A stretch of 59,252 bases of DNA from a virus. A model generated the notes under the pieces. That model was not told where the DNA came from and did no database searches. It worked only from the letters and a program-made list of their open reading frames with translations. The DNA lies in IMG/VR virus record IMGVR_UViG_3300042975_000012; one strand, written 5' to 3'. A program made the position numbers and the translations under genes. Numbering within the stretch: the first letter of the stretch is position 1; every line of letters begins with the position of its first letter. Positions 6,730 to 59,252 of the stretch are shown one piece after another.

Positions 6730-6775
6730 TGTATACTCGCTCATCCAAAAAGGGCCCTCACATGCCTCTGAGAAG

Positions 6776-6878
6776 CACATAAAGGGCCCTTAGAGCGACT
6801 TTTAGGGTAACTACGATAGATTATTCATGTTTACTATTTGAGGTCCTTACAACGAAACCTCGTATCTAGTAACTTTTT
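6776..6878 (-). repeat. Dispersed ~105-bp non-coding repeat, copy 1 (partner 10014..10118)
   Basis: Shared blocks cacataaagggcccttagagcgacttttagg, gatagattattcat and aacctcgtatctagtRactttt. Confidence 0.8.
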
Positions 6879-6879
6879 C

Positions 6880-7725
6880 CTAAAAATTAGGATTATCCTT
6901 GATTTCTTCATAATCGAATTTGTCTTCACAGTTATCATCGAGCTTTTTCAAATATACATCAGCGATAGGCATAGCTTTCTCTACAATATCATCAGACATA
7001 GTATCGACAACCACATCTATGAGATTTACAAGCATTGCCTTCAACGATTTACGGGCTTCAGCATTATCATAGGGATGTTTATTTTCGAGAACCCTTTCCG
7101 GATATCGTTCGATAGCATGGATAGTAAAAGAATCATGCTCGTTAAAAACCAAATCAAACGCAACGCGATTAGTACTATACAGTTTTTTGAAATATGCCAG
7201 ATATTCAGGGGCCTGTTTCTTTGCAGCGTTCTTTGCATCAACGAAATGTGTATAGTCATTATAATATTTCTTAAATGCTAGAGATACCACACTCCATTCA
7301 CAGTTTTTGTTGCAATATCGCATATTGATTTCACTCTTATATACGCCATCTCCGCAGTAAATGACGTTAGGTTCAGCTTTAATATCACGTTCCTGAATAG
7401 AGTCCACAGGCTCCGAACTTTCATAGCTGTTTTTAGTATCAATAAAATCTAAAGCCTGTTGAATTATTGTTTGTGGCGATTGCAGTGTAGTGTATTGGTT
7501 CGATATCATAAATTGTGGAGCTCGTCTATAAATTGCTATGGTATAGTGATCTTCAAACTTGATAACCGGACTGATATAATAATTTCTATAAGTAATAAAG
7601 AAATTTCTAAAATACTCTTTGTTGATGTTAATCCACTGTCTCGAATCTATCAATGCAATCGACTTTGATGTACGATTGCTAATATCTCTAAAATACTTAC
7701 AATCCGAAGCCATATTGTCTTTCAT
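6880..7725 (-). CDS. Hypothetical protein (281 aa)
   Basis: Long ORF on the coding strand. No motif recognised. Confidence 0.6.
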   Translation of the reverse strand: MKDNMASDCKYFRDISNRTSKSIALIDSRQWININKEYFRNFFITYRNYYISPVIKFEDHYTIAIYRRAPQFMISNQYTTLQSPQTIIQQALDFIDTKNSYESSEPVDSIQERDIKAEPNVIYCGDGVYKSEINMRYCNKNCEWSVVSLAFKKYYNDYTHFVDAKNAAKKQAPEYLAYFKKLYSTNRVAFDLVFNEHDSFTIHAIERYPERVLENKHPYDNAEARKSLKAMLVNLIDVVVDTMSDDIVEKAMPIADVYLKKLDDNCEDKFDYEEIKDNPNF

Positions 7726-8577: not shown

Positions 8578-8913
8578 CTACTCAGTGGTTAGATTGACAA
8601 TCTCATCAACAATAGTAGAACTGAGTCGTTCCTCACTCAATTTTCCATATCGAGCGATATTATAATCCATCTTACTATTTGAGAATGTGATCTCCCACAT
8701 ATATGTATCCCTTGGATTATCCTCTGCAACTAGAACCTTCCAACTTCCCAATACATATGCCGAGTTTATAACAAAGAAAGAGTTTAGATTCATATGCTCT
8801 TGAACGTGTGTTCCATATGAATCCTCAACCACGAAAGATGGCTGAATATTGAGAATATAGTCTCTATAGGCCAACTCGATTGCCAGATTCTCTTTAATAT
8901 CATTTTGCTTCAT
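8578..8913 (-). CDS. Hypothetical protein (111 aa)
   Basis: ORF on the coding strand with RBS AAAGGATATAATA then ATG. Confidence 0.6.
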   Translation of the reverse strand: MKQNDIKENLAIELAYRDYILNIQPSFVVEDSYGTHVQEHMNLNSFFVINSAYVLGSWKVLVAEDNPRDTYMWEITFSNSKMDYNIARYGKLSEERLSSTIVDEIVNLTTE

Positions 8914-8933
8914 TATTATATCCTTTTATTGTT

Positions 8934-8958
8934 CTTCATTATGTATCATATGAATATT
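8934..8958 (-). promoter_or_regulatory. Degenerate motif A
   Basis: RC reads AATATTCATATGATACATAATGAAG. Confidence 0.35.
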
Positions 8959-8985
8959 CTATATTCCTCACTCACAAAAGGCCCC

Positions 8986-9363
8986 TCAGATGCGTTTGAA
9001 ATGTAGTCCTCCGGCATCTGGTTTGATACCATTTATCTGCTGTGATATGGTTGAAGAACTCAGATCAAGTGCTTCTGCTGCTTTGTTCTGTGATGAATAT
9101 ACGTCTCCTGTTTCCAGGCACTGTACCACCCATGAAGGCGGTCCCTGACGACTGGATTCAACGGTATAGTTCAATACACCATTATTGATGGCGGGACTAG
9201 CAACGTTTTGGCTACCCATATCGATATCACCCATGGATATGCGGTCATCAATAGTGTTTTTACCAAGAATATAAGCACAAACACCAACTGCTACAACTAC
9301 TCCAGCTCCAATATACCACCACTTATATTGCTTCCAATGCTTCTTTATGGGTTCCTTGTCCAT
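8986..9363 (-). CDS. Membrane-anchored NUMOD1-like HTH protein, paralog 1 of 5
   Basis: Basic N-terminus, TM WWYIGAGVVVAVGVCAYILG, C-terminus VVQCLETGDVYSSQNKAAEALDLSSSTISQQINGIKPDAGGLHF. Confidence 0.6.
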   Translation of the reverse strand: MDKEPIKKHWKQYKWWYIGAGVVVAVGVCAYILGKNTIDDRISMGDIDMGSQNVASPAINNGVLNYTVESSRQGPPSWVVQCLETGDVYSSQNKAAEALDLSSSTISQQINGIKPDAGGLHFKRI

Positions 9364-9392
9364 GATGATTCCTTTCTAAAAAAAAAAAAAAA

Positions 9393-9471
9393 GAAGCAGA
9401 GTTTTTCTTAAGTCCGCGCAATGCTAGGCTTAACAAGTCCGCGCAATGCCAGGCTTGATTGTCTCGGCTTC
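9393..9471 (-). ncRNA. Twin-repeat hairpin cassette E7b (putative structured RNA or attenuator)
   Basis: Outer arms gaagcagag/ctcggcttc. 22-nt direct repeats aagtccgcgcaatgcYaggctt at 9410..9431 and 9435..9456. The RC strand ends in a T14 run (9378..9392). Confidence 0.4.
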
Positions 9472-9491
9472 ATTATAAAAAGATCTCCTCT

Positions 9492-9544
9492 CAAGTACGT
9501 ATTAGCACAAATACTTGACAAGTGCGTATTAGCACAAACACTTG
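9492..9544 (-). ncRNA. Twin hairpins E7a: two adjacent 26-nt stem-loops with identical loops
   Basis: caagtA-cgtattagcacaaa-Tacttg and caagtG-cgtattagcacaaa-Cacttg. The only two differences between the copies are compensatory. Confidence 0.5.
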
Positions 9545-9549
9545 ATAAT

Positions 9550-9575
9550 CCTTTCACTATAGACTATGTATTTTT
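9550..9575 (-). promoter_or_regulatory. Motif A variant (-10 TATAGT)
   Basis: RC reads AAAAATACATAGTCTATAGTGAAAGG. Confidence 0.45.
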
Positions 9576-9970
9576 TACGCAGCCATACAAATGCGCTCAA
9601 AATGGAGACCTCCAGCATTATCTCTTAATCCGTTAAGAGTTTTAGATATATCGTTTGGTGAAACATTAAGCGCCTCTGCTGCTTTACTCTGTGACGAGAA
9701 TACCTCACCCGTTTCAAGACAGCGAACCACCCACGAAGGCGGTCCTTGTCTGTCGGCCTCGACAGTGTAGTTGAGAGTGCCAAGATTGACCATTTGCTGG
9801 GGATCGTGGTTATCATTGCCAACACTCATATCAACCTTGATGTTTGGCGTCTTTTGTCTAGTTAATACATATACTCCAACACCTACTACGACTCCAACCA
9901 CAACTCCTACTCCAACAGTAATATAGGTCTGCTTATACTTCTCCCAATGTATTTTGATTTTCTCGTTCAT
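9575..9970 (-). CDS. Membrane-anchored NUMOD1-like HTH protein, paralog 2 of 5
   Basis: TM ITVGVGVVVGVVVGVGVYVL. C-terminus VVRCLETGEVFSSQSKAAEALNVSPNDISKTLNGLRDNAGGLHF. Confidence 0.6.
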   Translation of the reverse strand: MNEKIKIHWEKYKQTYITVGVGVVVGVVVGVGVYVLTRQKTPNIKVDMSVGNDNHDPQQMVNLGTLNYTVEADRQGPPSWVVRCLETGEVFSSQSKAAEALNVSPNDISKTLNGLRDNAGGLHFERICMAA

Positions 9971-10013
9971 AATATTCCTTTCATTAAATAACCTCTAGAA
10001 TGCCCCTCAGACG

Positions 10014-10118
10014 CACATAAAGGGCCCTTAGAGCGACTTTTAGGATACCTGTGATAGATTATTCATATGTGCGTTCTAAGAGCCTTAGAACACAACCTCG
10101 TATCTAGTGACTTTTCAC
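10014..10118 (-). repeat. Dispersed ~105-bp non-coding repeat, copy 2 (partner 6776..6878)
   Basis: Same conserved blocks as copy 1. Contains the motif-B-like AAAAGTCACTAGATAC on the RC strand. Confidence 0.8.
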
Positions 10119-10191
10119 TAAATATACTCGGTTTTCGATCAAAAGCTCGACTCAATCAATACTCATAAGCGTTCCTTTCCATATAACAACA

Positions 10192-10725
10192 TCACTCAAA
10201 TATGCGAATCCATTTCGAGCTATTGAGATTCGTAGTCACTGTTGTTGCAAAATCATCAGGCCATGTATGATCGCTTTGCGCTTTCACACATTTTGCCATC
10301 AACTGTCCTTTATCATTGAATGCAGAATATACATGGTAGCCATGATCCGTGTAGATTCGAGATATACAAGTCGTTCCCAAATGGTTACCCGCCATTAAGA
10401 AGAATGCCATTTTGTCCATATCATTGGTTGGTATACATACCGTTTCGAATATATCCTGATCAATGGCATTATACACACTCCAAGTACCTATAGTTGCCGA
10501 TAGGCTCCGACGATGCTTGTCCGCATAATCAGGACTATCCAATGATGGCATCGGTCCAAAATAAATAGTATTGAAGGGTGGCTCATTCCTCTTGAATATA
10601 GTAGGATTATTAGTAATGGTCTCTGACAGAACATGCATAACATTTTGAATAATCATAGATACAGGTATATTTGTCGTCCTGCTAATTCGTTGAGAGAGTT
10701 CATTTGAATATGACAGTTTGGTCAT
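10192..10725 (-). CDS. Hypothetical protein (177 aa)
   Basis: ORF on the coding strand with RBS AAAGGAACAATT then ATG. Confidence 0.6.
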   Translation of the reverse strand: MTKLSYSNELSQRISRTTNIPVSMIIQNVMHVLSETITNNPTIFKRNEPPFNTIYFGPMPSLDSPDYADKHRRSLSATIGTWSVYNAIDQDIFETVCIPTNDMDKMAFFLMAGNHLGTTCISRIYTDHGYHVYSAFNDKGQLMAKCVKAQSDHTWPDDFATTVTTNLNSSKWIRIFE

Positions 10726-10737
10726 AATTGTTCCTTT

Positions 10738-10953
10738 CTATACTTCTAAAATAGTTTTCCATACACCATAATATACATCGGTATCTATAGAAAATGTAGC
10801 GGTCTCCTGACATTTCCTACAGGATACTGTTGCTTCGCTGTAGACGTTATCTATCTTATACATATCGATAATATGAATACTAGCATGTGGGTGATTGCAA
10901 GGCAGTTGCTGCTTTGCTTTGGTGTATAGTGTTTTTTCACAATCGTTCATCAT
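10738..10953 (-). CDS. Small Cys-rich protein (71 aa)
   Basis: C..H and CRKC pairs. ATGA overlap with the upstream gene. Confidence 0.5.
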   Translation of the reverse strand: MMNDCEKTLYTKAKQQLPCNHPHASIHIIDMYKIDNVYSEATVSCRKCQETATFSIDTDVYYGVWKTILEV

Positions 10954-11294: not shown

Positions 11295-11406
11295 AATAAA
11301 CTCCTTTATATTTGGATATAACCCTTGACATGGAATTTCATAGTCTTTAATGTATCTATTGTTCCATTTTGTTGTTTGTTCATATCGTGTTCCTTTCACA
11401 AAAAAT

Positions 11407-11431
11407 ATAAAGCGCCATGTAGACGCTTTAT
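11407..11431 (-). terminator. Intrinsic terminator with CTACATGG apex
   Basis: RC reads ATAAAGCGTCTACATGGCGCTTTAT then ATTTTTT, running directly into the next RBS with no promoter between. Confidence 0.65.
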
Positions 11432-11645
11432 AGGTAATACTTACTTAAAAGTTTCTGGGAATTTCCCATATTTGCTATAATACTTCAGGAGTTTACGTCC
11501 TTGATACCTAAGCTTTGCATTTACCATCTATTCCTTGGTTTGATTCAAAGGATGTTCTGCATGTGCAATGTCCTTGCATATAAAGATGAACTTCTTGATA
11601 ATATTAGTTTCAGGCATGATAGTTCCTTTCAAAATTTACTTCTAT

Positions 11646-11799: not shown

Positions 11800-11892
11800 T
11801 CACGAACAACTTGCACCAGTAATGTAGTATTCTTTATATGTATGTAAATGCTTCTTAATCTTATCAAGATTAGTTTGGTTGTTGTCATCCAT
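11800..11892 (-). CDS. Mini-ORF (30 aa)
   Basis: Motif B, then RBS GAGGAGTAATT, then ATG. MDDNNQTNLDKIKKHLHTYKEYYITGASCS, translated by hand. Confidence 0.3.
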   Translation of the reverse strand: MDDNNQTNLDKIKKHLHTYKEYYITGASCS

Positions 11893-11907
11893 AATTACTC
11901 CTCAATA

Positions 11908-11922
11908 ATATAGTGACTTTTT
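11908..11922 (-). promoter_or_regulatory. Motif B
   Basis: RC reads AAAAAGTCACTATAT, 17 nt before the ATG. Confidence 0.4.
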
Positions 11923-11928
11923 ATAAAA

Positions 11929-11953
11929 ATAAAGCGCCATGTAGACGCTTTAT
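11929..11953 (-). terminator. Intrinsic terminator with CTACATGG apex
   Basis: Identical sequence to 11407..11431. Confidence 0.65.
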
Positions 11954-11956
11954 CTT

Positions 11957-12190
11957 TTACTTAACTCGTTCAGTTATACCATTCTTCATAACTTGGTGTT
12001 CTCCAGTTTTAGTATTCACTAGATGATATGCACCCCCATCATCTACGTAGTCCTTAGTATTTTGCAGTGTATCATTGCTTCCTGCGAATGACAGCAGAAA
12101 ACCGATACAAGCAATAGCCCCAATACCGCATATAGTGTGGATGATTATCTTTACTAGTGAATCTTTTAGAGATTTCTTTGCCTTAGACAT
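11957..12190 (-). CDS. Small membrane protein (77 aa)
   Basis: TM IIIHTICGIGAIACIGFLLSFAG. RBS GAAAGGATTATC. Confidence 0.55.
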   Translation of the reverse strand: MSKAKKSLKDSLVKIIIHTICGIGAIACIGFLLSFAGSNDTLQNTKDYVDDGGAYHLVNTKTGEHQVMKNGITERVK

Positions 12191-12209: not shown

Positions 12210-12233
12210 TTTCACTATACACCATGTAAAAAA
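12210..12233 (-). promoter_or_regulatory. Motif A variant (-10 TATAGT)
   Basis: RC reads TTTTTTACATGGTGTATAGTGAAA. Confidence 0.5.
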
Positions 12234-12257
12234 TAGAGCGCCATGTAGACGCTCTAT
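12233..12257 (-). terminator. Intrinsic terminator with CTACATGG apex
   Basis: RC reads ATAGAGCGTCTACATGGCGCTCTAT then TTTTTT. Confidence 0.65.
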
Positions 12258-12263
12258 AGTTTA

Positions 12264-12545
12264 TTAGTCTTCAGAAACAATATTATCTGAAATACGATTT
12301 ATCATATAGTCTTGATAGTCATCAACAAGTCCTTTATCGTTAAGAAATTCGTTAAAATCATTTATTTTTTCCTGCAATGATATATTATTCAACGTTAATC
12401 CGACTGCTGCTCCTGCGACAATTACACTTGGAATTGAAACTGCTGCAACAACAATAGTCTTTTTGTTTCTAGTATACCAATCAGAAATTTTAGATTTGAT
12501 CGATTTCTTATCTTCAACGACTGTAAATTCAATATTTTCCGACAT
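12264..12545 (-). CDS. Single-pass membrane protein (93 aa), paralog of 29251..29550
   Basis: Shared layout: basic segment, TM, then L..GL.DDY..Y.I..I. Confidence 0.55.
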   Translation of the reverse strand: MSENIEFTVVEDKKSIKSKISDWYTRNKKTIVVAAVSIPSVIVAGAAVGLTLNNISLQEKINDFNEFLNDKGLVDDYQDYMINRISDNIVSED

Positions 12546-12595: not shown

Positions 12596-12610
12596 TATAC
12601 TGAGTGAAAA

Positions 12611-12635
12611 ATAGAGGACCATGTAGATCCTCTAT
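12611..12635 (-). terminator. Intrinsic terminator with CTACATGG apex
   Basis: RC reads ATAGAGGATCTACATGGTCCTCTAT then TTTT. Confidence 0.65.
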
Positions 12636-12662
12636 TTGTTAATTACTACTCTTGTCGTTATG

Positions 12663-15273: not shown

Positions 15274-15289
15274 AATTTGTTCCTTTACA

Positions 15290-15304
15290 ATATAGTGACT
15301 TTTT
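15290..15304 (-). promoter_or_regulatory. Motif B
   Basis: RC reads AAAAAGTCACTATAT within TTTACAA...TTGTAAA flanks. Confidence 0.4.
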
Positions 15305-15317
15305 TGTAAAAAATAAA

Positions 15318-15412
15318 GAAGAAGTTGTAATGAATTTTATCCATTATCTCGCATACAATCACGCAAGATAAATCTCGCATACAATCACGCGATTTTTCAT
15401 TACAACTTCTTC
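15318..15412 (-). ncRNA. Twin-repeat hairpin cassette E1
   Basis: Perfect 17-bp outer arms gaagaagttgtaatgaa/ttcattacaacttcttc. 19-nt repeats atctcgcatacaatcacgc at 15346..15364 and 15372..15390. Inner ttatc/gataa pairing. RC tail TTTATTTTTT. Confidence 0.5.
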
Positions 15413-15436: not shown

Positions 15437-15856
15437 CTAATTTCTCGAACCAAGGCCTATAATTTCAAAATGTTGACCTAGATAATCTGGTTTCGTTCCA
15501 TTGATAACTTTCGACAAATTAGCTCTGCTTACACCAAGATCTTCCGCAGCAGAACTAATACTATCCCAGATTTCACCCGTTTCAATGCATCGAACTATCT
15601 TAGATAGATGCCCTTGAAAATTGTTTTGGGTAATAGTTGAATTATTAATTATTGGAGAATTAGATATTGACTTTGCTTTAACGATCAGTTCTTGACCTGT
15701 ATCAGCAACATCAATCTTCTTTCCTATAATAATTCCAACTCCTATACTCAATGCAATCACTCCTGCTGAAATATAAACAGTCTTATACTGGTCGAAGTGG
15801 TCTCTAATTCTATCAAGTACAGAATCATACTCGTCTTCATCATTATTTTCAAACAT
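15437..15856 (-). CDS. Membrane-anchored NUMOD1-like HTH protein, paralog 3 of 5
   Basis: Acidic N-terminus, TM ISAGVIALSIGVGIIIG, C-terminus IVRCIETGEIWDSISSAAEDLGVSRANLSKVINGTKPDYLGQHF. Confidence 0.6.
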   Translation of the reverse strand: MFENNDEDEYDSVLDRIRDHFDQYKTVYISAGVIALSIGVGIIIGKKIDVADTGQELIVKAKSISNSPIINNSTITQNNFQGHLSKIVRCIETGEIWDSISSAAEDLGVSRANLSKVINGTKPDYLGQHFEIIGLGSRN

Positions 15857-15871
15857 AATTGTTCCTTTACA

Positions 15872-15886
15872 ATATAGTGACTTTTT
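15872..15886 (-). promoter_or_regulatory. Motif B
   Basis: RC reads AAAAAGTCACTATAT. Confidence 0.4.
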
Positions 15887-15899
15887 TGTAAAAAATAAA

Positions 15900-15980
15900 G
15901 AAGAAGTAGTAAATCCTAAGTCTCCCGCAATCGGGAAAAATAGGTAGCGTCCGCAATCGGATACAGTTTACTACTTCTTC
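15900..15980 (-). ncRNA. Twin-repeat hairpin cassette E2
   Basis: Perfect 14-bp outer arms gaagaagtagtaaa/tttactacttcttc. Repeats ccgcaatcgg at 15925..15934 and 15951..15960, each a mini-hairpin. Inner ccta/tagg pairing. Confidence 0.5.
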
Positions 15981-16004: not shown

Positions 16005-16412
16005 TTATTGTCGAGAGCCTACACCTAAGACTTCGAAATGCATTCCACCAGCGCTTTCACTATGTCCATTTATTACTTTTGAAATATCACTAGCTTTGAC
16101 ATCTAAGTCTTCTGCTGCTTCTCGAATACTAGGCCAGATTTCACCCGTTTCAATGCATCGAACTATCTTAGATAGATGCCCTTGAAAATTATTCTGAATC
16201 AAACTTCCGTTGTTGATAATAGCTTCTGTTGAATTGGATATAACATTTGTAGGAAGGTCGTGTGTATCAATCTTCTTTCCTATAATAATTCCAACTCCTA
16301 TACTCAATGCAATCACTCCTGCCGAAATATAAACAGTCTTATACTGGTCGAAGTGATCTTTGACTCTATCCAGTATAGAATCATACTCATCATCGTTATC
16401 ATTGTCAAACAT
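16005..16412 (-). CDS. Membrane-anchored NUMOD1-like HTH protein, paralog 4 of 5
   Basis: Real start is MFDNDNDDEY at 16412 behind AAAGGAACAATT. The N-terminal 50 aa are nearly identical to paralog 3. Confidence 0.6.
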   Translation of the reverse strand: MFDNDNDDEYDSILDRVKDHFDQYKTVYISAGVIALSIGVGIIIGKKIDTHDLPTNVISNSTEAIINNGSLIQNNFQGHLSKIVRCIETGEIWPSIREAAEDLDVKASDISKVINGHSESAGGMHFEVLGVGSRQ

Positions 16413-16427
16413 AATTGTTCCTTTACA

Positions 16428-16442
16428 ATATAGTGACTTTTT
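16428..16442 (-). promoter_or_regulatory. Motif B
   Basis: RC reads AAAAAGTCACTATAT. Confidence 0.4.
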
Positions 16443-16451
16443 GTAAAAAGT

Positions 16452-16472
16452 AAAGCACCATGTAGTGCTTTT
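16452..16472 (-). terminator. Intrinsic terminator with CTACATGG apex, about 75 nt downstream of a motif A
   Basis: RC reads AAAAGCACTACATGGTGCTTT then ACTTTTT. Confidence 0.6.
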
Positions 16473-16520
16473 AAATGTCCTCAATTGCTGTTAAGCGTCG
16501 GAGGGCAACCTTCCTATCTT

Positions 16521-23529: not shown

Positions 23530-24051
23530 CTAGGACTCCTGTAGAATATAGGAAGCCATTTGGTCCCATAGTTCCATTTTAGTTCGGTCATGGCCATAGA
23601 TGGTGACTGGGAATAGACTCCCACTACCGGAATATGGATTGTAATTATGATTGAGTACATCATGAATCGTCTGTCTTACGACATATTGAGTATTAGGATA
23701 TTGAGACATGAACTCGTCTGTAAAATCCATAAACCCAAGATTATCAATCAAATCCCAGAAGAAGGGTCGAATATCATCTACTTCATGATCGAGAAGAGAT
23801 TGGTATTCTATCGTCTGGGATAAGATAATGATAAGTTCGAATACAGAAAATATAGGAGGCACTGTATCAGCATCTCGTGGGCATTCAGAAATGAATTCCT
23901 CTTGCAACCGCTGAATATCACCTTCTCTATTAGCATCCATAGTAATATCGTATGTAAAGGGGATACTGAATAGTATATCCATGAGACTCAAATATGAATT
24001 ATCGATTCTGTCTACTTTGTCATATAGCCACCTGAAATATGTTACGTTCAT
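23530..24051 (-). CDS. Hypothetical protein (173 aa)
   Basis: ORF on the coding strand. Confidence 0.55.
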   Translation of the reverse strand: MNVTYFRWLYDKVDRIDNSYLSLMDILFSIPFTYDITMDANREGDIQRLQEEFISECPRDADTVPPIFSVFELIIILSQTIEYQSLLDHEVDDIRPFFWDLIDNLGFMDFTDEFMSQYPNTQYVVRQTIHDVLNHNYNPYSGSGSLFPVTIYGHDRTKMELWDQMASYILQES

Positions 24052-24073
24052 ATAGCAATTACTATTCCTTATA

Positions 24074-24865
24074 TTATGCTAACGAATCTCCATATGTACA
24101 GGGCTTATATGAAATTTCGTAGTCGGTCATCAATCGTTCATTACGAACATAGATAATAGGCATTTCCTCCGAAATATAATTCAGGAATTCACTACCTACA
24201 ATTTTTTCGTAATTTTTCCTGCCCAGGAAGGGTGCATTACTCTCATCGGCAAGAACCTTGTCTTTAGCATACCAGCTATATGATAGCTTACTGTAGAGAT
24301 CATCTTCTTCATCAAAGAAGCTGTCATCTATCAAGTAAGGATCCACATTACTGGTTTCGTCTTCTTCTGTCACTTCAATATCCTCCTCGGATTCATCAGA
24401 CTCAGATCCATCAGACTCATATTCGTCGTCATGAACAACCACGTAATCTTTTTTCTCCTGAATAGGTATCTCAGTAACAGATGTGTCAGTTAATGTGTTT
24501 TGTTGATAGTCTTGAATATGCTCAAGCAATGTAGGAACATCAAGACCTTCTTTGTACATCATACTGATATATGCTTGTTCCTTACTCTTAAGCTCTTCAT
24601 ATTGAGTATGAATTTCTTCATATTTTTCTTGATAGTATCTGCGAGCCTTTGCCTCTTGCTTAGTAAGTTCAAGAGCATCTGACTCAACAGTCGCTACGTC
24701 TTTTCTGTTGTCCTGGTAATACGCCTTCATCTTGGCGATCTCTTCTTCAGCTTTATCTTGAGCTTTCTGTTCGAAGAAATTCTTTCCGATGAAAATACCA
24801 CCAGCGACACCAAAGGCCGCAGCAACCAATCCGGTTCCTACGGCCACTAGTGTTGTGTTTGCCAT
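24074..24865 (-). CDS. Membrane-anchored coiled-coil protein with acidic central tract (263 aa)
   Basis: N-terminal TM LVAVGTGLVAAAFGVAGGIFIG. DESEEDIEVTEEDE tract. Confidence 0.55.
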   Translation of the reverse strand: MANTTLVAVGTGLVAAAFGVAGGIFIGKNFFEQKAQDKAEEEIAKMKAYYQDNRKDVATVESDALELTKQEAKARRYYQEKYEEIHTQYEELKSKEQAYISMMYKEGLDVPTLLEHIQDYQQNTLTDTSVTEIPIQEKKDYVVVHDDEYESDGSESDESEEDIEVTEEDETSNVDPYLIDDSFFDEEDDLYSKLSYSWYAKDKVLADESNAPFLGRKNYEKIVGSEFLNYISEEMPIIYVRNERLMTDYEISYKPCTYGDSLA

Positions 24866-27269: not shown

Positions 27270-27300
27270 TATTATTCCTATCTATTTGTTATTATCAAAA

Positions 27301-27327
27301 TTTAGAGGACCGTGTAGGCCCTCTAAA
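27301..27327 (-). terminator. Intrinsic terminator with CTACACGG apex
   Basis: RC reads TTTAGAGGGCCTACACGGTCCTCTAAA then TTTTG. Confidence 0.6.
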
Positions 27328-27338
27328 TATAACTTAAA

Positions 27339-29199: not shown

Positions 29200-29220
29200 G
29201 CAATTTTACAAAGGCGAAAT

Positions 29221-29245
29221 ATACAGGACCGTGTAGGTCCTGTAT
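29221..29245 (-). terminator. Intrinsic terminator with CTACACGG apex
   Basis: RC reads ATACAGGACCTACACGGTCCTGTAT then ATTTCGCC; weak T tail. Confidence 0.5.
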
Positions 29246-29250
29246 ATCTT

Positions 29251-29550
29251 TTAAAAAGTCTTTACATCTTTTAGTTCCGTATTGATTTTATCAATAACAT
29301 ACTTACGATAATCATCTTCAAGACCTGTATTCAGAATAAAATCTTTTACGGAATCATATTGCACTTTTGTATTAATATAATGAGATCCAGCCATAATTGC
29401 TCCAACTGTTCCAGCGGTCACTATTACGCATAGTGCTGTTGCTTCAGCTGTTACTTTTATGGATTGTTCATTAGTTTTATACCAAGTTGCAAATTTATTC
29501 TTAAAAGATACTTTTTCTTTTTGATCTTCAATTTGAGTATTGTCAGTCAT
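29251..29550 (-). CDS. Single-pass membrane protein (99 aa), paralog of 12264..12545
   Basis: MKGNIM leader artefact removed. See partner. Confidence 0.55.
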   Translation of the reverse strand: MTDNTQIEDQKEKVSFKNKFATWYKTNEQSIKVTAEATALCVIVTAGTVGAIMAGSHYINTKVQYDSVKDFILNTGLEDDYRKYVIDKINTELKDVKTF

Positions 29551-30226: not shown

Positions 30227-30637
30227 TCAGCCTGATGTAAGACCCAAAGCTTTGAAGTGTAATCCATTAGTACTTTCTTTGTGTCCGTTTATAACTTTGG
30301 ATATATTATTAATAGGAATACCCAAATCTTCAGCTGCCTCAGTTATGCTAGACCAAATTTGACCCGTTTCAATACATTGTACAATCTTTCGCTGTCGACC
30401 AGTAAAAGTATTATTTATTATGGTCGAATTATCTCCCGAAACCGTAAAGATTTTAATTTTAGACTCAACGTTATCTTCGACGTTAATTGTTGGGATGGTT
30501 TTTTGATGTTCATTCAAATGAAAATAGATGCCAATACCAACAATAACTATGGCACCGATACTCAAGCAATAATCTTTCCAATGCTCTTGAAAATGAGTCG
30601 TAACTTTATCTATAGTTGTTTCTGTTTTCTCATCCAT
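30227..30637 (-). CDS. Membrane-anchored NUMOD1-like HTH protein, paralog 5 of 5
   Basis: TM LSIGAIVIVGIGIYF. C-terminus IVQCIETGQIWSSITEAAEDLGIPINNISKVINGHKESTNGLHF. MKGIIM artefact removed. Confidence 0.6.
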   Translation of the reverse strand: MDEKTETTIDKVTTHFQEHWKDYCLSIGAIVIVGIGIYFHLNEHQKTIPTINVEDNVESKIKIFTVSGDNSTIINNTFTGRQRKIVQCIETGQIWSSITEAAEDLGIPINNISKVINGHKESTNGLHFKALGLTSG

Positions 30638-40150: not shown

Positions 40151-43100
40151 CTGACTTCTCCCCTTCTGCTAAATGTTCCGAGTTTCTGATTCATGGGCTT
40201 TGCCAATTTACTAGCCACCTTGTCGCCATCCATATAGACACCAAGTTCCTGATTCTCGATGGCCTTTTGGTACTCAGCCATATTGTCATTAAGAGAATCC
40301 AATTTAGATATCATTCGAGAATTCGTATCAACCATTTGGTTCTGATAACTGGCTAGAGCTGTAACTCGAGGATCAACATACTTGACATCAGGAATAGAAA
40401 TATGGCCCTTCAACAAAGACACTCCACTATTTGCCATCATACTGCTAATAGAATTAGTATCCCTCTTGAATCCGGTCATATCATATATCGGAGAAACAGT
40501 AGGACTCATAGAAGTTCCGCTGTTCTTCATAGCGTCTTTCAATGAACCCAGAGCTTGTTCACCCATGGTAGTTGCGGCATCTGTCACCAAACCGATTGAT
40601 TCGGTTTCACCATTAGCCATGCCTTCGCCAACAAAGTGTCCGATTTTGAAGGCTTTCTTCGATGGCGAATGTTCGTCGGTTGCTGCCTTGGCAGCGGCTA
40701 TGGCTTGAGCACCCATACTAGCAGCAGCACTGATTGCAGCATTACTACCTGCTGAAATACCATTGGCGAAGCCTTCCGCAACATACTGTCCTGCATCAAA
40801 GAATCCTCCATAGTATCCTCGCAATTCCGAAACTGCCCCAGCAAGATGCTGAGTAGCAGCTCCAGCGAGATTGCCACCACCAGTACGCACACCATTAACA
40901 AGGTTATCCATAAGAGCCTTGCCATGTGCATAATACTGGCTATTGTAGGATGCAATAGTCTGCAATGCATTACCCAGAGCTGATTGTATTCCAGTATTCA
41001 TGGGAAGCAGAGCAAGCGGTATACTCAGAGCAAACTGAAGCACCACCATCTGTAGACCTTGGAATGCATTACGTATACCACTCGAACCAGATACTACAGC
41101 TGCCTGTGCAGAAAACATTTGACTAGTGATACCGAAACTCATCATAACCATTGCCAGGGGAATCATAGCAGAATAGACATTAACCATCGCGGCTGTCTGT
41201 CCAAGAGATGCAACTATAGCACTTCCGCCAGCCATAACGGCCGCTGCTGCTAGCGAGAACTCAACGAAGATATTGGCACCCATACCTGAGAAACCTACAG
41301 AAATAGAAGTCTTCAGGTTTTGCGCTGCAATACTCAATTGAACTGATACTGAATTAAGGATAGTGATAAGGCTGGTAAATACTGAAGACAGATTGACTGT
41401 AGCATTGCCAACAGCGATTGTCATCGCGTTTATTCCTAAATCTCCGGCAGAAGATATAGAGGCCTTAAAGGACCCCAATACCGAACCATCAATACTCGCT
41501 AGTGTAGAAACAAAGGTTTTGAGTTTCTCTACTCCTGCATTTGCAGTATCCAATGACCACCAAGCAATAGTACTAAGACCCGCCATAACAGTTCTTAGTG
41601 TCGTTGTAATCGTAGTAAGAGCTGGCATATTCTGTGTATTCAAACTACCAAGACTATTGTAGTCTGTGACAAAGGTTTTGAGCTTAGCCATAGGTCCTGC
41701 GGTATCAATACCAGACAATCCAGCCAGACTACTGGCAATTTTACGCAAACCTTCAGACAAAGTCGTAGCCGAAGCTCCAAAACTCTTTCCGACTTCGAAT
41801 CCACTAACAGCATTCTTAAGACTGGAAAGATCGTTCGATATCGTAGTGACTCCCTGAACATTAGCCCATTGTGCTACAGCAGTCGCCAAGCTTTTAAGCG
41901 GCGATACAATAGTCGATATAGCCGATCCAGCAGCACCAAGAGTTCCGAAACCTTCTACACCAGACTTTATTGCTGTAAGCCCGGAACGCAAAGAATCCGG
42001 AACAGTTATTGCCGACCATGCCGAGACAGAAGTTGCGAGACTAGCTAAGGGCTGTACAATGCTAGTCATTGCTCCACCAGAAGTTACACCAGCAAATTCC
42101 TTCACACCACCTGCAATATCTGTCAGACTAGACTTGAGACCATTCGGTACAGAAACACCATTCCACTTCTGAATAGCGCCAGCCAAAGAACCTAGTGGTC
42201 CAACGATCGAGTCAAGATTTCCACCAGTAAGGAACTGACCTTGGAATGCAGCGACACCGTTTTTAATGTCCCATAGACCTTGTTTGAAGTTAGCTGGTAC
42301 AGAAACACCATTCCACTTCTGAATAGCGCCAGCCAAAGAACCTAGTGGTCCAACGATCGAGTCAAGATTTCCACCAGTAAGGAACTGACCTTGGAATGCA
42401 GCGACTCCATTCTTAATGTCCCATAGACCTTGTTTGAAGTTAGCTGGTACAGAAACACCATTCCACTTCTGAATAGCGCCAGCCAAAGAACCTAGTGGTC
42501 CAACGATCGAGTCAATGTTTCCGCCAGTAAGGAACTGACCTTGGAATGCAGCGACTCCATTCTTAATGTCCCACAGACCTTGCTTGAAGTTAGCTGGTAC
42601 AGAAACACCATTCCACTTCTGAATAGCGCCAGCCAAAGAACCTAATGGTCCAACGATCGAGTCAATGTTTCCGCCAGTAAGGAACTGACCTTGGAATGCA
42701 GCAACACCATTCTTAATGTCCCACATACCTTGCTTGAAGTTAGCTGGTACAGAAACACCATTCCACTTCTTAATAGCGCCAGCCAAAGAACCTAGTGGTC
42801 CAACGATCGAGTCAATGTTTCCGCCAGTAAAGAACTGACCTTGGAATGCAGCAACACCGTTTTTAATGTCCCATAGACCTTGTTTAAGACCGGCAGGGAT
42901 AGTGACTGTAGACCATTTCTTCAGCGCATCTGCTAGTTCACCCAATGGCCCAACAATATTACCAAGGTTCCATCCAGATGTAAATTGTAAACTAAAAGCA
43001 CCAATACCATCTTTAACATCGTAAAGAGTCTGCTTAAAACCATCGGGAATGGAGATATTGGTCCACTTTTTCAGTGCTTCTGGGAGTTGAGTAAGAGGCC

Positions 43101-46100
43101 CAACGATATTACCTAGGTTAAAACCAGAAGTAAATTGAAGGTTAAAGGCTCCCATAGCATCACTGATACCCTTAAGCTTATCCTTAAGTCCATCAGGAAT
43201 CTTGACATTCTGCCATTTTGACAATGCATCAGGAAGTTTACTAATAGGATCAACAATGTTGTTGAGATTGAAGCCAGAAGTAAATTGCATACTGAATGCG
43301 CCAATGCCATCCTTCAGATCCCATAGTCCTTGCTTAAGACCAGCAGGGAATTTAACGCCATTCCACTTGGAAAGAGCGGAAGAAAGGTCGCCTATAGGTC
43401 CTACAATATTATTTAGGTTCATGCCCGAAGTGAATTGCAGAAGGAATGGTTGTATTCCTTCCGCAAGATCATTCAGACCCTTCTTAAGACCTGAAGGGAA
43501 TTTTACACCTTCCCATTTCTTCACAGAATCAGCAAGTTTTCCTACAGCAGGTGCTGCAACTGCAAGACTATCAGATCCCAAACCGGTGAAGAGGAAGTGA
43601 CGAAGACCACTAGCAAGATCTGAGAGCGACTTCTTAAGTTCACCCGGAACTTTAACTTTAGACCACTTCTGAATTGAATCAGCAAGTGTACCAAGAGGTT
43701 CTGCAACCTTAGCAATGGATAGGGAACCTATAATACTAAGAGTATTCAGGAATGTACCGCCTGCGATGACAGCAAGTGCCCCACCCATTGCAGTGAGACC
43801 TTTCTTAATATCATCCCAAGAATAGGAAGCGAAATCACCAAGTGCATCTGCAAGTTTGCTAAGAGACTGAACCGATAGCAAGATAGATGCTGCACCGACC
43901 AGCCCTAATACATTAGTAAGATAACCAAGAACACCAGATACAACACCAAGTTCCAAAAGTGCGGCACCAATACCAACAAGACCTTTTTCAATTTCATCCC
44001 AAGAAAGTTTACCTACAACTTTCAAAGCATCAGCTATTTGAGCAAGAGATTGAACAGCAATAAAAATCGAAGCTGCACCGAGAAGACCACTCATACCCGA
44101 GAGCTTTCCAAGCGCACCAGAGACAATTCCCATTTCAGCAAGTACGCCACCAAGACCGACAAGTCCCGACTTAATACTATCCCATGAAATCTTTCCTACA
44201 ATAGTAAGAGCACTTCCGATATCAGCAAGCGATTGCGATACTATAAATAAGTCAACAGAAGCTAATAATGACTTAAATCCAGAGACCTTACCAAGAAGTT
44301 TCATAACTAGGGTCATTTCGATCATAACACCACCGAAAGCAACAAGACCTTGTCCAATTTCATCCCAAGATAACTTAGCAACGGTTTGTAATGCGGCACC
44401 AATCTTTTCAAGAGTAGATGCAACAATAACCATACTTACTGCACCAGCTAATCCATTTAATCCATCAACTTTAGAAAGACTCTTCAGTACAGATTTCATA
44501 ATACCTAGAGTTGTTACAACTCCGGTTAATCCTTTACCAATTTCTTCCCAAGATAGTTTTGCTACTTCGAGTAGCGCATCACCAATCTTGCTAAGAGTTT
44601 GTGCCATTATGACCATACTTAAGGCACCGGCAAGATTAGAGAAACCATTATTCTTTGCTAGACTCTTCATGGCCAAAGTCATTGTAGTAAGAGCACCAAC
44701 AATTCCAGCCAAGCCTTTTTCTATACTATCCCATGACAACATAGACACCTGTGTAAGCGCTTTACCTATGCTAGTCAATGTTTGCGCAAGAATAAGCATG
44801 GAAATTGAACCTACTAGAGACTGTGTTCCGTTATTCTTCGCCAAACTTTTCATAACGAGTGCCATCGTACCCATGACGCCGATGATTCCAACCAGACCTT
44901 TTTCTATACCATCCCAAGAAAGAGCTGAAAGTTGAACCATAACATTGCCAAGTTTTACCAAGCTATAGGCCATGGCAAGCATAGCAAAACTAGTAGTTAA
45001 TCCAACCCGTGTACCACTCATAAGTTTCAGTACAGCACCAAGGGATATCATCATCCCGATTGCACCAGAAAGACCCTTGCCGATTCCTTCCCACGACAAA
45101 GAAGCAAGAGTAGAAAGAGCCGACGAGAGCATCTGAATAGCCTTTGCCAAGGCAATGAGCATGACGCCAGACTTAAGAGAAGAAACAACAAGATCGGTCC
45201 TGGTCAAGAACTTAGCAAGTGAACCAATGAGTACCTTGATAGCTATAAGACCTTTAGCTATACCTTGAATATCAAGTTCTGCTATCTTCTTCATGGCATC
45301 TGCAAGTTTATTGATAGCTGTTGCAAGCAATAATAGGGTAATACCTGCTTGAATAAGACCCTTACCACTAAATCCTGTGAGAATAGCGGTAATAGATTTC
45401 AGCCCTTTAGATAGCATTCCAAACATTGCAGCCATAGCGACAAGCGATGTCACTGTCTTTTGAATATCTATCTCAGATATAGTTTTTAATGAATAAGCAA
45501 GAATACCAATGGCACCGGCTATCATCAATAAAGTACCAGCTTTGATACCTTGTGTGAAAGCCTTCAATGAATCTGATACTTCATTGAGAATTGTCTTAAA
45601 TATAGAAGCAGATTTCTTAGCGTCTTCTAGAGTCTCTTTTCCACCAGTGAACAGGTCTTTGACTTTATCAACAATACCACCGACATTCTTAATGAGGTCA
45701 TATACTTTCTTAAGGATGGCAAGGACTCCACCTCCGGCTGCAACTTTAAACACATCACCCAAAGAGATAGATACATTAGACCCTATCCAACTGAAAGCCT
45801 TAGTGACTACATTCTTAATAGTTCCTAATGCGGCACCAATTTTCTCTCCAGCGGTAGAAATAGCATGTTCGAGTACGGTAAGAAAATCAAATGATCCAGC
45901 ACTCTTGGCCAATTGCGAAACAAAATCAGAAACGGCACTAGTAATATGTTTAATAATACCAATTATTGGTGAAAGGCTTCCAAAACCTTTAGTAATACCC
46001 GTTCCAAACGCACGAACAACCTCTGTTACAGTACGAATTACTTTACCAACAATTTGAAGAGCTGAGATAAAGAGGTCTATAGATTTTACCGAAGAGGGAA

Positions 46101-58935: not shown

Positions 58936-59193
58936 TTACAAAGAAATATCTTCTAACTTTGCACGAAGTTCAAGAACTTCCAAATATTCTTTCATAGACT
59001 TAAGTTGTTTCTCAAGAGCAGCAGTTCCAGACTTCAACTCGAAATCTAATTTCCCTTCTTTGCTTTTCTTAAGCGTCTCTTCAAGAGCCTGCGAGCGCCG
59101 ACTTAGCTCATAGACCTCACCTTTGAACCGCTCTTTGTAATCAGAACTCAGAATAAGCGGAACAATAGTCTTCCAATCGGTTGGATAAGCCAT
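58936..59193 (-). CDS. Hypothetical coiled-coil protein (85 aa)
   Basis: ORF with RBS AAAGGAATCTATT. Its 5' part lies in the terminal overlap. Confidence 0.55.
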   Translation of the reverse strand: MAYPTDWKTIVPLILSSDYKERFKGEVYELSRRSQALEETLKKSKEGKLDFELKSGTAALEKQLKSMKEYLEVLELRAKLEDISL

Positions 59194-59252
59194 AATAGAT
59201 TCCTTTCAATCTAAAATATAAACTCAAAAATGCCCTCCGGAGGAAAAAATAG
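59042..59252. repeat. Terminal overlap copy 2 (identical to 1..211)
   Basis: See copy 1. Confidence 0.95.

Follow-up and report, generated by a model that had tools for sequence, protein, structure and literature searches.

Type III toxin-antitoxin loci consist of a promoter, tandem repeats, a terminator and an open reading frame (ORF), and their antitoxin units span 34 to 45 nucleotides (nt). The repeats of CRISPR (clustered regularly interspaced short palindromic repeat) arrays are 28 to 37 nt long, and the put RNA of phage HK022 is composed of two hairpins. Here we analyze an element, termed E7, that lies between two genes at positions 9364..9575 of the IMG/VR virus record IMGVR_UViG_3300042975_000012 and is read on the minus strand. 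The whole stretch of DNA analyzed, 59,252 nt in length, is referred to below as the window. E7 comprises two adjacent cassettes, E7a and E7b, each of which holds two near-identical hairpins (its cargo) within a closing stem. The evidence presented below indicates that E7 is probably a noncoding RNA gene, and neither a protein-binding DNA site nor a coding region.

As in type III loci, tandem near-identical repeats are positioned between a promoter-like site and a terminator-like end. However, the downstream ORF does not belong to the ToxN/AbiQ/CptN/TenpN families and gives no PADLOC or Pfam toxin match, and the units measure 25 to 27 nt rather than the ~34 to 45 nt of antitoxin RNAs. A CRISPR mimic would be expected to carry a 28- to 37-nt repeat with ~30-nt spacers, whereas the units of E7 are 22 to 26 nt long and are separated by 1 to 3 nt. 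A scan of genome collections returned no such array and one chance hit only, the host not being identified.

The twin hairpins of E7a

All elements of E7 that the original prediction described are present on the minus strand, and its central observation is confirmed. The features of E7a and its upstream flank are as follows.

9577-9575, minus strand: stop codon TAA of the upstream ORF 9970..9575
9570-9556, minus strand: promoter-like site TACAT-AGTC-TATAGT (TACATAGTCTATAGT), with TACAT at 9570-9566, then AGTC, then TATAGT at 9561-9556
9555..9477, minus strand: E7a domain in the minimum-free-energy fold, from the putative +1 G at 9555
9555-9547 with 9485-9477, minus strand: closing stem of nine base pairs (bp), GAAAGGAUU with GAUCUUUUU, enclosing both hairpins
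9544-9519, minus strand: hairpin 1, CAAGTG-TTTGTGCTAATACG-CACTTG, followed by a single T at 9518
9517-9492, minus strand: hairpin 2, CAAGTA-TTTGTGCTAATACG-TACTTG

The twin 26-nt hairpins had been noted to differ at only two, compensatory positions, and this is borne out on the minus-strand reading, where the two differing positions constitute the sixth pair of the outer stem (G-C in hairpin 1, A-U in hairpin 2). The copies are spaced 27 nt apart, and 25 of 27 bases are identical between them. The 14-nt TTTGTGCTAATACG segments, which had been treated as unstructured loops, do have structure. Each hairpin begins with a 6-bp outer stem (CAAGUG/CACUUG in hairpin 1) and proceeds through a 2-nt 5′ bulge (UU) to a 4-bp inner helix (U.G, G-C, U-A and G.U) capped by a CUAA tetraloop, and the inner helix covaries in relatives. 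Hairpin 1 folds at −8.3 kcal/mol (z −2.9) and hairpin 2 at −6.4 kcal/mol (z −2.7). For the whole 179-nt E7 RNA the value is −48.8 kcal/mol (z = −2.64), which was equaled by 0 of 200 shuffles. A purine-rich AGAGGA stretch in the E7a domain is unpaired. The T run of E7a itself falls within the closing stem, and E7a-type cassettes with a proper U tail are found in relatives (contigs L164, L179 and L159).

Evidence that E7a acts as an RNA comes from comparative sequence analysis. Relatives were gathered from public assemblies by a protein search with the upstream 131-amino-acid (aa) protein, whose relatives there are 43 to 81% identical to it. The collection holds 13 E7a-type cassettes in 11 contigs, which represent nine distinct sequences. 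Across these nine orthologous cassettes, all 261 pair cells of the closing stem and the two hairpins are occupied by standard pairs, and six pairs have changes on both sides. When the partners are slid by 1 to 3 columns, pairing falls to only 26 to 64%. All nine pairs of the closing stem are kept, with G-C/G.U exchanges among them, and covariation within hairpin 1 is seen at pairs 14-35, 21-30 and 22-29 of the alignment (A4). At the pair where the two window copies diverge (44-59 of this alignment), six orthologues have G-C, two have G.U and one has A-U, a series that would be the expected route for an RNA helix. The claim that pairing in the twin hairpins is under selection, which was originally made from the window alone, is therefore upheld by the fully paired cells and the six double-changed pairs among the nine orthologues.

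The pattern of conservation differs between parts of the hairpin. In the nine distinct sequences the stems drift, yet the G-CUAA-U apex never changes and the unpaired bulge hardly does. The twin state is kept in 13 of 13 occurrences. Copies in one genome differ at 0 to 3 positions and haplotypes differ at 3 to 6, and therefore the two copies evolve in concert. Differences are compensated inside each hairpin and not across the palindrome at the CACTTG-T-CAAGTG junction. This pattern speaks against E7a being a DNA palindrome or folding in an extended form between copies.

The fold is also specific to one strand. E7a contains seven G.U pairs, and its sense sequence folds at −22.1 kcal/mol versus −11.8 kcal/mol for the antisense sequence. 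A covariance model of E7a scores 94 to 109 bits in the sense orientation (101.4 for the window), whereas antisense matches in the relatives reach 17 to 19 bits. This strand specificity argues that E7a acts as RNA. The same model detects the second cassettes of the locus at 19 to 38 bits. These keep the CAAGUG/CACUUG stem base and bear other apices (UUCG, GUAUU or the AUUGC of E7b), and therefore the locus holds paralogous cassettes.

Three further candidates were set aside. An RNAalifold consensus for E7a, with a different first hairpin and broken pairs, was not followed; the twin-hairpin structure given above, being 100% paired, is the better fit. A likeness of the E7a apex (GCTAATACCG) to 16S ribosomal RNA was dismissed because relatives keep only GCUAAU constant. 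The 11-mer GTGTTTGTGCT of hairpin 1 recurs in the same sense at 9274-9284, within the transmembrane (TM)-coding part of the downstream gene. This recurrence is not kept in relatives and is probably due to chance.

E7b, promoter-like sites and a predicted transcript

The second cassette, E7b, follows E7a directly and leads into the downstream gene through the features listed here.

9477-9468, minus strand: TATAATGAAG, the −10/+1 core of the promoter consensus, overlapping the 3′ arm of the E7a closing stem
9471..9393, minus strand: E7b domain
9471-9463 with 9401-9393, minus strand: E7b closing stem, 5′ arm GAAGCCGAG and 3′ arm CTCTGCTTC (as RNA CUCUGCUUC), with 8 of 9 positions paired
9456-9435 and 9431-9410, minus strand: two 22-nt copies of AAGCCTRGCATTGCGCGGACTT
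9457-9434 and 9432-9409, minus strand: the corresponding 24-nt units, (C/U)AAGCCURGCAUUGCGCGGACUU(G/A), with a spacing of 25 nt
9392-9378, minus strand: U15 tract directly 3′ of the E7b closing stem, an intrinsic-terminator-like end
9376-9370, minus strand: ribosome-binding site (RBS) GAAAGGA of ORF 9363..8986, whose ATG is at 9363-9361

Two 22-nt copies inside an enclosing stem, then a T run, then an RBS had been described for this region, and each is present as stated, the RBS following directly after the T run in the minus-strand sequence. The two E7b units are identical at 22 of 24 bases. Their flanks provide a second compensated difference that had been overlooked, in that the outer bases are C...G in copy 1 and U...A in copy 2. 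RNAfold closes the apex of the unit on an AUU triloop, one pair further in than C-AUUGC-G. E7b is kept in L165 and L178 with five variable positions. Two of these five repair the mismatch in the closing stem (C-G/U.G and A-U), and another converts a C.A mismatch in copy 1 to a U-A pair.

The U tract was originally reported as 14 T residues and as the strongest terminator-like tail of the genome. It is indeed the longest homopolymer in the window, although its length is 15 rather than 14. The next longest minus-strand T runs, of 9 and 8, are likewise located at cassette terminators, such that the three longest all sit at cassette ends. In E7b orthologues the run is T9 (L165) or T7 (L178), versus T15 in the window. 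The closing stem of E7b (8 of 9 pairs) adjoins U15 directly, as in an intrinsic terminator, so this helix would double as one, and we consider a terminator reading of the E7b end and its T run to be reasonable. No promoter would fit between the U15 tract and the RBS of ORF 9363..8986; the distance from the U15 tract to the start of the RBS-to-ATG stretch was put at only 13 nt.

The sequence TATAATGAAG occurs 15 times in the window, versus 0.33 copies expected, and all copies are on the minus strand, which is the coding strand. Alignment of these sites yields a long consensus, TACA-N6-TACAT-N4-TATAAT followed directly by GAAGAAG. Four of the 15 sites run straight into an RBS and gene, as a promoter would, and the others precede a cassette. 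No promoter had been assigned to E7a, but a variant of this consensus begins 5 nt past the stop codon of ORF 9970..9575. The site ranks 22nd of 118,428 positions when scored with a matrix trained on 14 canonical promoters. Its TACAT and TATA(A/G)T elements are kept in six of seven aligned relatives, with the L164 cassette having no promoter of its own.

The situation is different for E7b, which was proposed to be launched by its own copy of TATAATGAAG. This copy is one of the 15 exact matches and carries the −10/+1 part of the consensus, but the upstream TACAT is missing. Because the upstream half of the consensus is absent, the site ranks only 8967th of 118,428 with the same matrix, versus 22nd for the E7a site, and we regard it as a probable vestige of a promoter or a weak internal one. 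In the tandem cassettes of L164 and L179, a promoter is missing from the second cassette, and a U tail is present only on the last. The incomplete promoter of E7b, together with these promoterless second cassettes, therefore makes it more likely that E7a and E7b form one transcription unit.

From these features we infer a transcript that would start at G 9555 from a phage-specific promoter abutting the upstream stop codon, run through both E7a and E7b, and end at U15 ~175 nt later. In each domain the first nine bases would pair with the last nine, and the cargo would be two copies of one hairpin. Both RNA ends would be locked in helices, as in stable RNAs, and the product would be a discrete stable RNA species with both ends paired.

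The cassette family in the window and in related phages

E7 is one of 11 cassettes in the window. In these cassettes, the bases after TATAAT (e.g., GAAGAAGTTGTAATG) pair with a sequence 50 to 100 nt downstream (CATTACAACTTCTTC) that precedes a T-rich tract, and every closing stem found by a scan begins at the G after TATAAT and stops just before the T-rich tail. The closing stems covary between cassettes. Eight of the 11 cassettes have exactly two hairpin copies at 25- to 27-nt spacing, the cargo sequence varies by cassette, and a single-hairpin cassette is present at 6710. The long promoter motif is restricted to the two accessory-gene regions of the window, where the sites are distributed as follows.

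6509, 6716, 8527, 11781, 12581, 15418, 15986, 16530, 28473, 29184, 29595, 30083, 30207 and 30759, minus strand: TATAAT sites
12219, 12981, 27571 and 31102, minus strand: variant promoter sites

Six further twin cassettes (30201, 30077, 29178, 15980, 15412 and 11775) give z values of −3.9 to −8.4 by RNAfold. These six share the closing stem, hairpin 1 and a short covarying helix that bears hairpin 2, with a repeat spacing of 25 to 27 nt. The variants of the short helix are CCUA/UAGG, CCUCA/UGAGG, CCUUA/UAAGG and UUAUC/GAUAA. E7a and E7b have linkers of only 1 and 3 nt and no CCUA/UAGG-type helix, so E7 represents a subtype of the family. In other respects E7 has the family traits. A TACAT-N4-TATA(A/G)T promoter lies directly upstream of E7a, with E7b having the TATAAT-GAAG core only. 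Closing stems run from the G after the −10 element to a T-rich tail (E7b, GAAGCCGAG/CUCUGCUUC plus T15; E7a, GAAAGGAUU/GAUCUUUUU). At least two near-identical hairpins are spaced within the 23- to 27-nt range (27 nt in E7a, 25 nt in E7b).

A search of the whole window with Rfam 15 gave no match at the gathering threshold, for E7 or for the other cassettes. The best subthreshold match to E7a is the Chlorobi-RRM model (RF01697) at 15.5 bits, which is at chance level (gathering 45, E = 1.5). Neither ARAGORN nor Rfam identified a transfer RNA (tRNA) in the window cassettes. In several cassettes another promoter-like site precedes the next gene. A second recurring motif, TTTTTTACAAAAAAGTCACTATATTG, is found between cassette terminators and the next RBS, and it may represent a second promoter class. 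In addition, there are seven terminator-like hairpins with covarying stems and a conserved loop (minus strand CUACAUGG or CUACACGG), each followed by a T run. Such a conserved loop is unusual for plain terminators.

11882-11929, 15277-15330, 15846-15912 and 16402-16468: recurring motif TTTTTTACAAAAAAGTCACTATATTG
11402-11438, 11924-11960, 12228-12264, 12606-12642, 16445-16481, 27297-27333 and 29216-29252: conserved-loop terminator-like hairpins

The window has a perfect 211-bp direct repeat at its ends (1-211 = 59042-59252), which is either a terminal redundancy or the assembly overlap of a circular contig. With this repeat at both ends, the window most likely spans an entire phage genome. All of its long ORFs are on the minus strand. 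The encoded proteins include those of a siphovirus (terminase, portal, head protease-capsid fusion, tail endopeptidase and a 2460-aa tape-measure-like protein) and a 1303-aa primase-polymerase. The last gene encodes a 979-aa YonO/RdRP-like RNA polymerase (RdRP, RNA-dependent RNA polymerase) with helix-turn-helix domains at both ends. This polymerase is 35 to 45% identical to those of ~250 GenBank phages, which come from Arthrobacter, Gordonia, Streptomyces and Lactococcus phages and from human-associated viromes. According to a preprint that does not mention promoters, terminators, hairpins or repeats, the lineage is common to phages of Actinobacteria and Firmicutes (10.1101/842583). A nucleotide search with window positions 8900-10000 revealed no DNA-level relative among GenBank phages. 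Elsewhere in the window, the gene for the 2460-aa tape-measure-like protein contains five tandem 150-nt repeats (72 to 92% identity with the reference copy) as well as 183-nt repeats in series (42115-43014, 43774-44920). Four genes of the terminase region open with 25 near-identical codons (MTESEYLEHFGVPGMKWG...; 54105-54181, 54645-54721, 56889-56965 and 57564-57640), which are paralogous N termini.

The same design is present in related phages, among which the order and number of the 13 E7a-type cassettes vary. With the same promoter and closing-stem frame, three hairpin copies at 26-nt spacing are found in L172 and L173, four in L174 and two in L175. Across the lineage, the family ranges from one to four hairpin copies at 23- to 27-nt spacing, or carries tRNA-like cargo. 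In Arthrobacter phage Qui (L180), a homologue of the upstream gene (gp172, annotated "membrane protein," 36% identity) is directly followed by a cassette with the same promoter, a U tract and a closing stem of 15 positions, 14 of which are paired. Its sequence reads ATTTACACCGCGTATAAT followed directly by GAGAACCCCTCGGGT, then ...AGCTGAGGGGTTCTC-ATTATTTTTT, arranged around two copies of AACGATCATTGCGATAGTT that are 26 nt apart. By manual pairing, the apex of the Qui hairpins is the same C-AUUGC-G as that of E7b. Lactococcus phage P092 (L176) has at least eight copies of TTTTACATACCCTATAATGA. Two of these begin cassettes with a closing stem, a T9-10 tail and tRNA-like cargo, which scores 39.2 and 43.8 bits with the Rfam tRNA model (gathering 29) and is not called by ARAGORN.

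L180 6398-6505 (MN183282 ~85754-85861): twin-hairpin cassette of phage Qui
L180 6520-6640: second promoter and another structured RNA with a terminator in phage Qui
L176 3613-3679 and 4001-4067 (NC_024203 ~23612-23678 and ~24000-24066): unannotated tRNA-like elements of phage P092, between small ORFs, whose anticodon arm looks degenerate, in cassettes at ~23606-23690 and ~23994-24078

In L172, a true tRNA-Lys gene lies just upstream of the three-hairpin cassette. These occurrences indicate that the frame is a general small-RNA expression unit of the lineage. The promoter core also occurs in Qui, in P092 and in the oral "Siphovirus contig89." Because it is kept across very different hosts, the promoter is probably read by the phage's own polymerase. 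The YonO/RdRP-like polymerase of this lineage, with its helix-turn-helix domains, thus has a candidate promoter in the motif (T)TACAY-N4-TATAAT followed by GA(G/A)A. The promoter of YonO itself is not known (PMC5467207).

Other observations were made in these contigs. An extra element, ATTGCGATGTCCGTATTCTGGGTGACAGATACCATCGGAAC followed by a CUACAUGG-loop terminator, stands after the second cassette in L159 (10570-10640), L163 (10565-10640) and L165 (7890-7960) and is absent from the window. L172 contains a noncoding stretch of ~440 nt after its NUMOD-like gene (10420-10860), in which a single-hairpin cassette precedes three repeats ending in GTCAGGCC(G/A)CC. A promoter match with a 7-bp closing stem and a 24-nt-spaced repeat at L172 10100-10232 lies inside the TM-coding part of the NUMOD-like gene and was rejected as a probable coincidence.

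The genes that flank E7 belong to a group of paralogues with NUMOD1-like DNA-binding domains.

9575..9970, minus strand: upstream gene, encoding a 131-aa membrane-anchored NUMOD1-like DNA-binding protein (Pfam I-HmuI_NUMOD-like, E 1e-5)
9363..8986, minus strand: downstream gene, encoding a 125-aa protein with a TM helix and a NUMOD1-like DNA-binding domain
9970..9575, 9363..8986, 30637..30227, 16412..16005 and 15856..15437: the five NUMOD1-like paralogues
11892..11800: 30-aa remnant fragment of a paralogue
29550..29251 and 12545..12264: shorter, TM-only relatives of the paralogues

The downstream gene (8986..9363) was originally described as membrane-anchored and NUMOD1-like, and both the TM helix and the NUMOD1-like domain were found. 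Each paralogue combines a short segment at the N terminus and a single TM helix with a NUMOD1-like domain at the C terminus. A confident structure model of the C-terminal domain of the upstream protein is best matched by 8b6e (a DNA-binding protein), I-HmuI and I-TevI. Protein p16.7 of phage phi29 ties phage DNA to the membrane, and the architecture of the paralogues recalls p16.7. Four of the five paralogues in the window are directly followed by a twin-hairpin cassette. A cassette also directly follows homologues in L159-L165, L174, L178-L179 and Qui, and a single-hairpin cassette does so in L172, such that among related phages a homologue nearly always has a cassette immediately after it. 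The homologue in L171 is not directly followed by one, and in L163 cassette 15412 has an identical copy behind an unrelated gene. The genes located after E7a-type cassettes in relatives encode a Thy1-like, a 105-aa, a 302-aa or a NUMOD-like protein. The link between NUMOD-like genes and cassettes is thus suggestive, not strict. Covariation of the E7a haplotype with the neighboring NUMOD-like protein was looked for and is absent, since L159 and L164 have the same hairpins and proteins that are 81% and 58% identical to that of the window. Pfam and PADLOC searches matched none of the neighboring proteins to a toxin or defense family. Structured leaders that are 82% identical to each other occur on the minus strand at 9971-10135, upstream of ORF 9970..9575, and at 6762-6887 (hairpins with CUCUAAGG/CCUUAGAG-type arms, fold z −3.3). 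The same leader element precedes the homologous gene in L159, L161, L163, L164 and L165.

Possible functions and comparison with described systems

We tentatively propose that E7 produces an abundant, nuclease-resistant small RNA that shows two identical hairpins to a two-site partner (a dimeric protein, for example). The G-CUAA-U apex of E7a and its UU bulge, which are conserved while the stems drift, look like a recognition surface. The two hairpin copies would act jointly on a partner with two binding sites, and candidates for this partner would be the membrane-anchored NUMOD-like proteins encoded next to E7 or a host factor, which the RNA would titrate as a decoy. An interaction under conflict would fit both the quick replacement of cargo among close relatives and the placement of the cassettes with early accessory genes. 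In cis, there is perhaps an even chance that the terminator restrains read-through into the membrane-anchored NUMOD-like gene downstream. This gene has no promoter of its own and most transcripts would stop at U15, so only read-through would reach it. A broader idea, which we hold to be speculative and rather doubtful, is that the cassettes are phage RNA effectors of a new class, in which a self-closing, nuclease-resistant scaffold presents two or more copies of an exchangeable cargo (repeated hairpins or a tRNA-like fold), each cargo capturing a specific two-site partner. Equally doubtful is the extension that such partners are host defense or RNA-processing proteins, or NUMOD-like proteins that are RNA-guided or RNA-tethered, with the modular, fast-evolving repertoire driven by the YonO-like polymerase.

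Several observations weigh against the proposal of a small RNA with a two-site partner. Recent slippage could explain why the copies are nearly identical, without any requirement for two equal sites. The single hairpins of E7b are not unusually stable (z −0.75 and −0.5), and E7b has no G.U pairs and no strand asymmetry (−23.9 kcal/mol sense versus −25.5 kcal/mol antisense). Its fold is also ambiguous. Each unit is a near-palindrome, and therefore both local and inter-copy folding are possible, with two local hairpins giving −20.2 kcal/mol and one long inter-copy hairpin −25.1 kcal/mol. As an intrinsic terminator, a 9-bp stem around a 61-nt insert is unusual; a compact hairpin with a loop of ~3 to 8 nt would be expected, and a consensus terminator scan did not list the E7b end. 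Moreover, polymerases of the YonO type are without the flap domain that multisubunit enzymes use for hairpin-dependent termination (PMC5467207), and it is therefore uncertain whether the phage enzyme would terminate here. The start site, the U15 3′ end and the identity of the polymerase are all predictions. Genome, metagenome and antisense searches found no partner of E7. The E7a motif CAAGTG-N5-GCTAAT-N3-CACTTG gave only four unrelated single hits among 185,579 GTDB species genomes and JGI metagenomes, in a search that required the exact outer stem and apex and used one genome per GTDB species. Within the phage, antisense targets of the hairpins did not rise above chance; the E7a apex is complementary to the hairpins of cassette 30077 over 8 to 9 nt, a match that was likewise at chance level and was discarded. 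An IMG/VR search for related loci with the 131-aa protein confirmed no relative, and short exact patterns (14 to 15 nt, from the E7a loop and the E7b repeat) gave only chance hits in IMG/VR, none of them in a hairpin context.

The original prediction favored a regulated terminator or antiterminator aimed at the NUMOD-like gene. In such a cis-acting leader the hairpins would modify the polymerase, as HK022 put RNA does, or bind a factor, deciding passage of U15, and the order of parts is suited to this, as two hairpins one base apart are followed by a terminator-like site and then by an RBS with no promoter between, and the three strongest T runs each lie between a cassette and an RBS. However, most family members carry their hairpins inside the closing stem of the terminator and not upstream of it. 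Cassettes precede different genes in relatives, swap order and duplicate, in L164 and L179 the cassette is last in the unit with its own U tract, and several cassettes have a further promoter-like site ahead of the next gene. Hairpin sequences differ by cassette, so a single factor could not read all of them, and the homologous P092 cassettes carry tRNA-like cargo. The varied downstream genes and the tRNA-like cargo point to a small-RNA gene, not to a gene-specific leader. Regulation of this kind is not supported by comparison with relatives, and we regard it as unlikely, with attenuation of read-through at U15 being likely as a side effect. The cassettes might instead be a library of RNA decoys against host defense, in which arrays imitate a type III antitoxin, a CRISPR repeat or a nuclease substrate and titrate the matching host protein. 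The sequence of promoter, tandem near-identical structured repeats, terminator and ORF is that of type III toxin-antitoxin loci, copy number varies from one to four, copies evolve in concert, cargo is replaced quickly among close relatives and is tRNA-like in P092, and the cassettes lie in the early accessory region, where relatives have an Acb2/Tad1-like gene. Against a decoy library are the 23- to 27-nt units, which match neither the 34- to 45-nt antitoxin units nor the 28- to 37-nt CRISPR repeats, the lack of neighbors in ToxN/AbiQ-like or other defense families, and the lack of a host copy of the E7a hairpin in GTDB species genomes or JGI metagenomes, in a search that required the exact outer stem and apex and is a weak test with a host that is not identified. 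Overall, we think a decoy role quite unlikely.

The repeats might act as DNA, serving as binding or anchoring sites for the adjacent membrane-anchored NUMOD1-like proteins, which would tether the phage DNA much as p16.7 of phi29 does, with hairpin potential being incidental. The best structural matches of the modeled C-terminal domain (8b6e, I-HmuI and I-TevI) and the cassettes directly after four of the five paralogues and after their homologues (L159-L165, L174, L178-L179 and Qui) would be consistent with such sites, but they are improbable for several reasons. Changes are compensated within each hairpin and not across the junction palindrome, the invariant G.U pairs indicate a strand-specific structure, the CAAGTG arm lies 14, 12 or 11 bases from the CACTTG arm, depending on the cassette of the locus, the E7a haplotype is independent of protein divergence (L159, L164), and an identical cassette follows an unrelated gene in L163. 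It is more improbable still that E7 has no function of its own, its hairpins being filler that keeps the terminator arms close and its copies the result of recent slippage. Relatives do have plain UUCG tetraloop cargo, single in L160 and L161 and twin in L164, and copy number varies, down to the single-hairpin cassette at 6710. Filler would not be expected, however, to appear in exactly two copies at 25- to 27-nt spacing in eight of 11 window cassettes, to remain twin in 13 of 13 E7a occurrences and even in the distant Qui, or to keep an invariant G-CUAA-U apex and a nearly invariant bulge while its stems drift. Finally, micro-proteins can be read from a 17-codon GTG ORF through E7a, 7 nt after GAAAGGA, and from a 21-codon ATG ORF through E7b that starts at TATAATG. 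Both are open in the window and have a suitably spaced Shine-Dalgarno-like sequence, and the 27-nt spacing of E7a is a multiple of three. These ORFs are refuted by relatives in which the structure persists. A 1-nt deletion in both hairpins of L179 keeps the fold and gives GTG TTG TGC TAA, whereas the E7b ORF of L178 reads GTG AAG TAG and stops at codon 3. In addition, radical amino-acid changes (R/C/H, V/A/T) follow the compensatory base changes, and other cassettes are spaced 23 to 26 nt. A coding function is thus scarcely credible.

If the small-RNA reading of E7 is true, then about ten promoters in each genome would serve small structured RNAs in a widespread siphovirus lineage, which includes Arthrobacter, Streptomyces, Gordonia and Lactococcus phages and members of gut and oral viromes. 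The evidence for structure is unusually clear, with compensatory changes observed both between copies in one genome and between genomes. The cultured phages Qui and P092 share the design, which opens hairpin binding and the need for two copies to direct test.

Our search of the literature, which covered the promoter, the twin hairpins and the YonO-like polymerase of this lineage, found no description of the cassettes. Several known systems can be compared with E7. Type III antitoxin arrays (ToxI, AntiQ, CptI and TenpI) are similar in having a promoter, tandem units that are uniform in one locus and different in another, an intrinsic terminator and an ORF reached by read-through, and in their variable copy number. 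The cassettes described here differ in their 23- to 27-nt units, which are simple hairpins within a 5′-3′ closing stem, and in the presence of about ten cassettes per phage before unrelated genes. Like HK022 put, an antiterminator RNA that acts in cis on the transcribing polymerase, E7 places two adjacent hairpins after a phage promoter and before a terminator, and those of E7a are one base apart and supported by covariation. However, the put hairpins are not copies of each other, whereas here the hairpins are mostly inside the terminator stem and the cargo varies and can be tRNA-like. Chlorobi-RRM, the only Rfam model to match E7a over its full length, likewise has two similar hairpins side by side, suggesting a two-site partner, but the score is at chance level and the sequence, context and organisms are unrelated. 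Small stable RNAs and tRNA genes of phages (the T4 tRNA cluster, species 1 and 2 RNAs, and early-terminated leader RNAs) are also short, structured and promoter-proximal, with paired ends, and map to early regions; the window cassettes differ in that they have no tRNA match and carry a repeated hairpin as cargo. E7b resembles intrinsic terminators in its stem directly before a long U tract (8 of 9 pairs, U15), but its "loop" is a 61-nt structured insert and its 5′ arm comprises the bases transcribed first from a promoter. Small phage RNAs, terminators and tandem RNA repeats are each familiar, and their combination in E7 matches no Rfam 15 family or paper that we found. The combination consists of a scaffold that closes from the +1 position of a phage promoter around two to four homogenized hairpins at fixed spacing, and that is present in about ten units per genome in phages ranging from those of Actinobacteria to those of Firmicutes.

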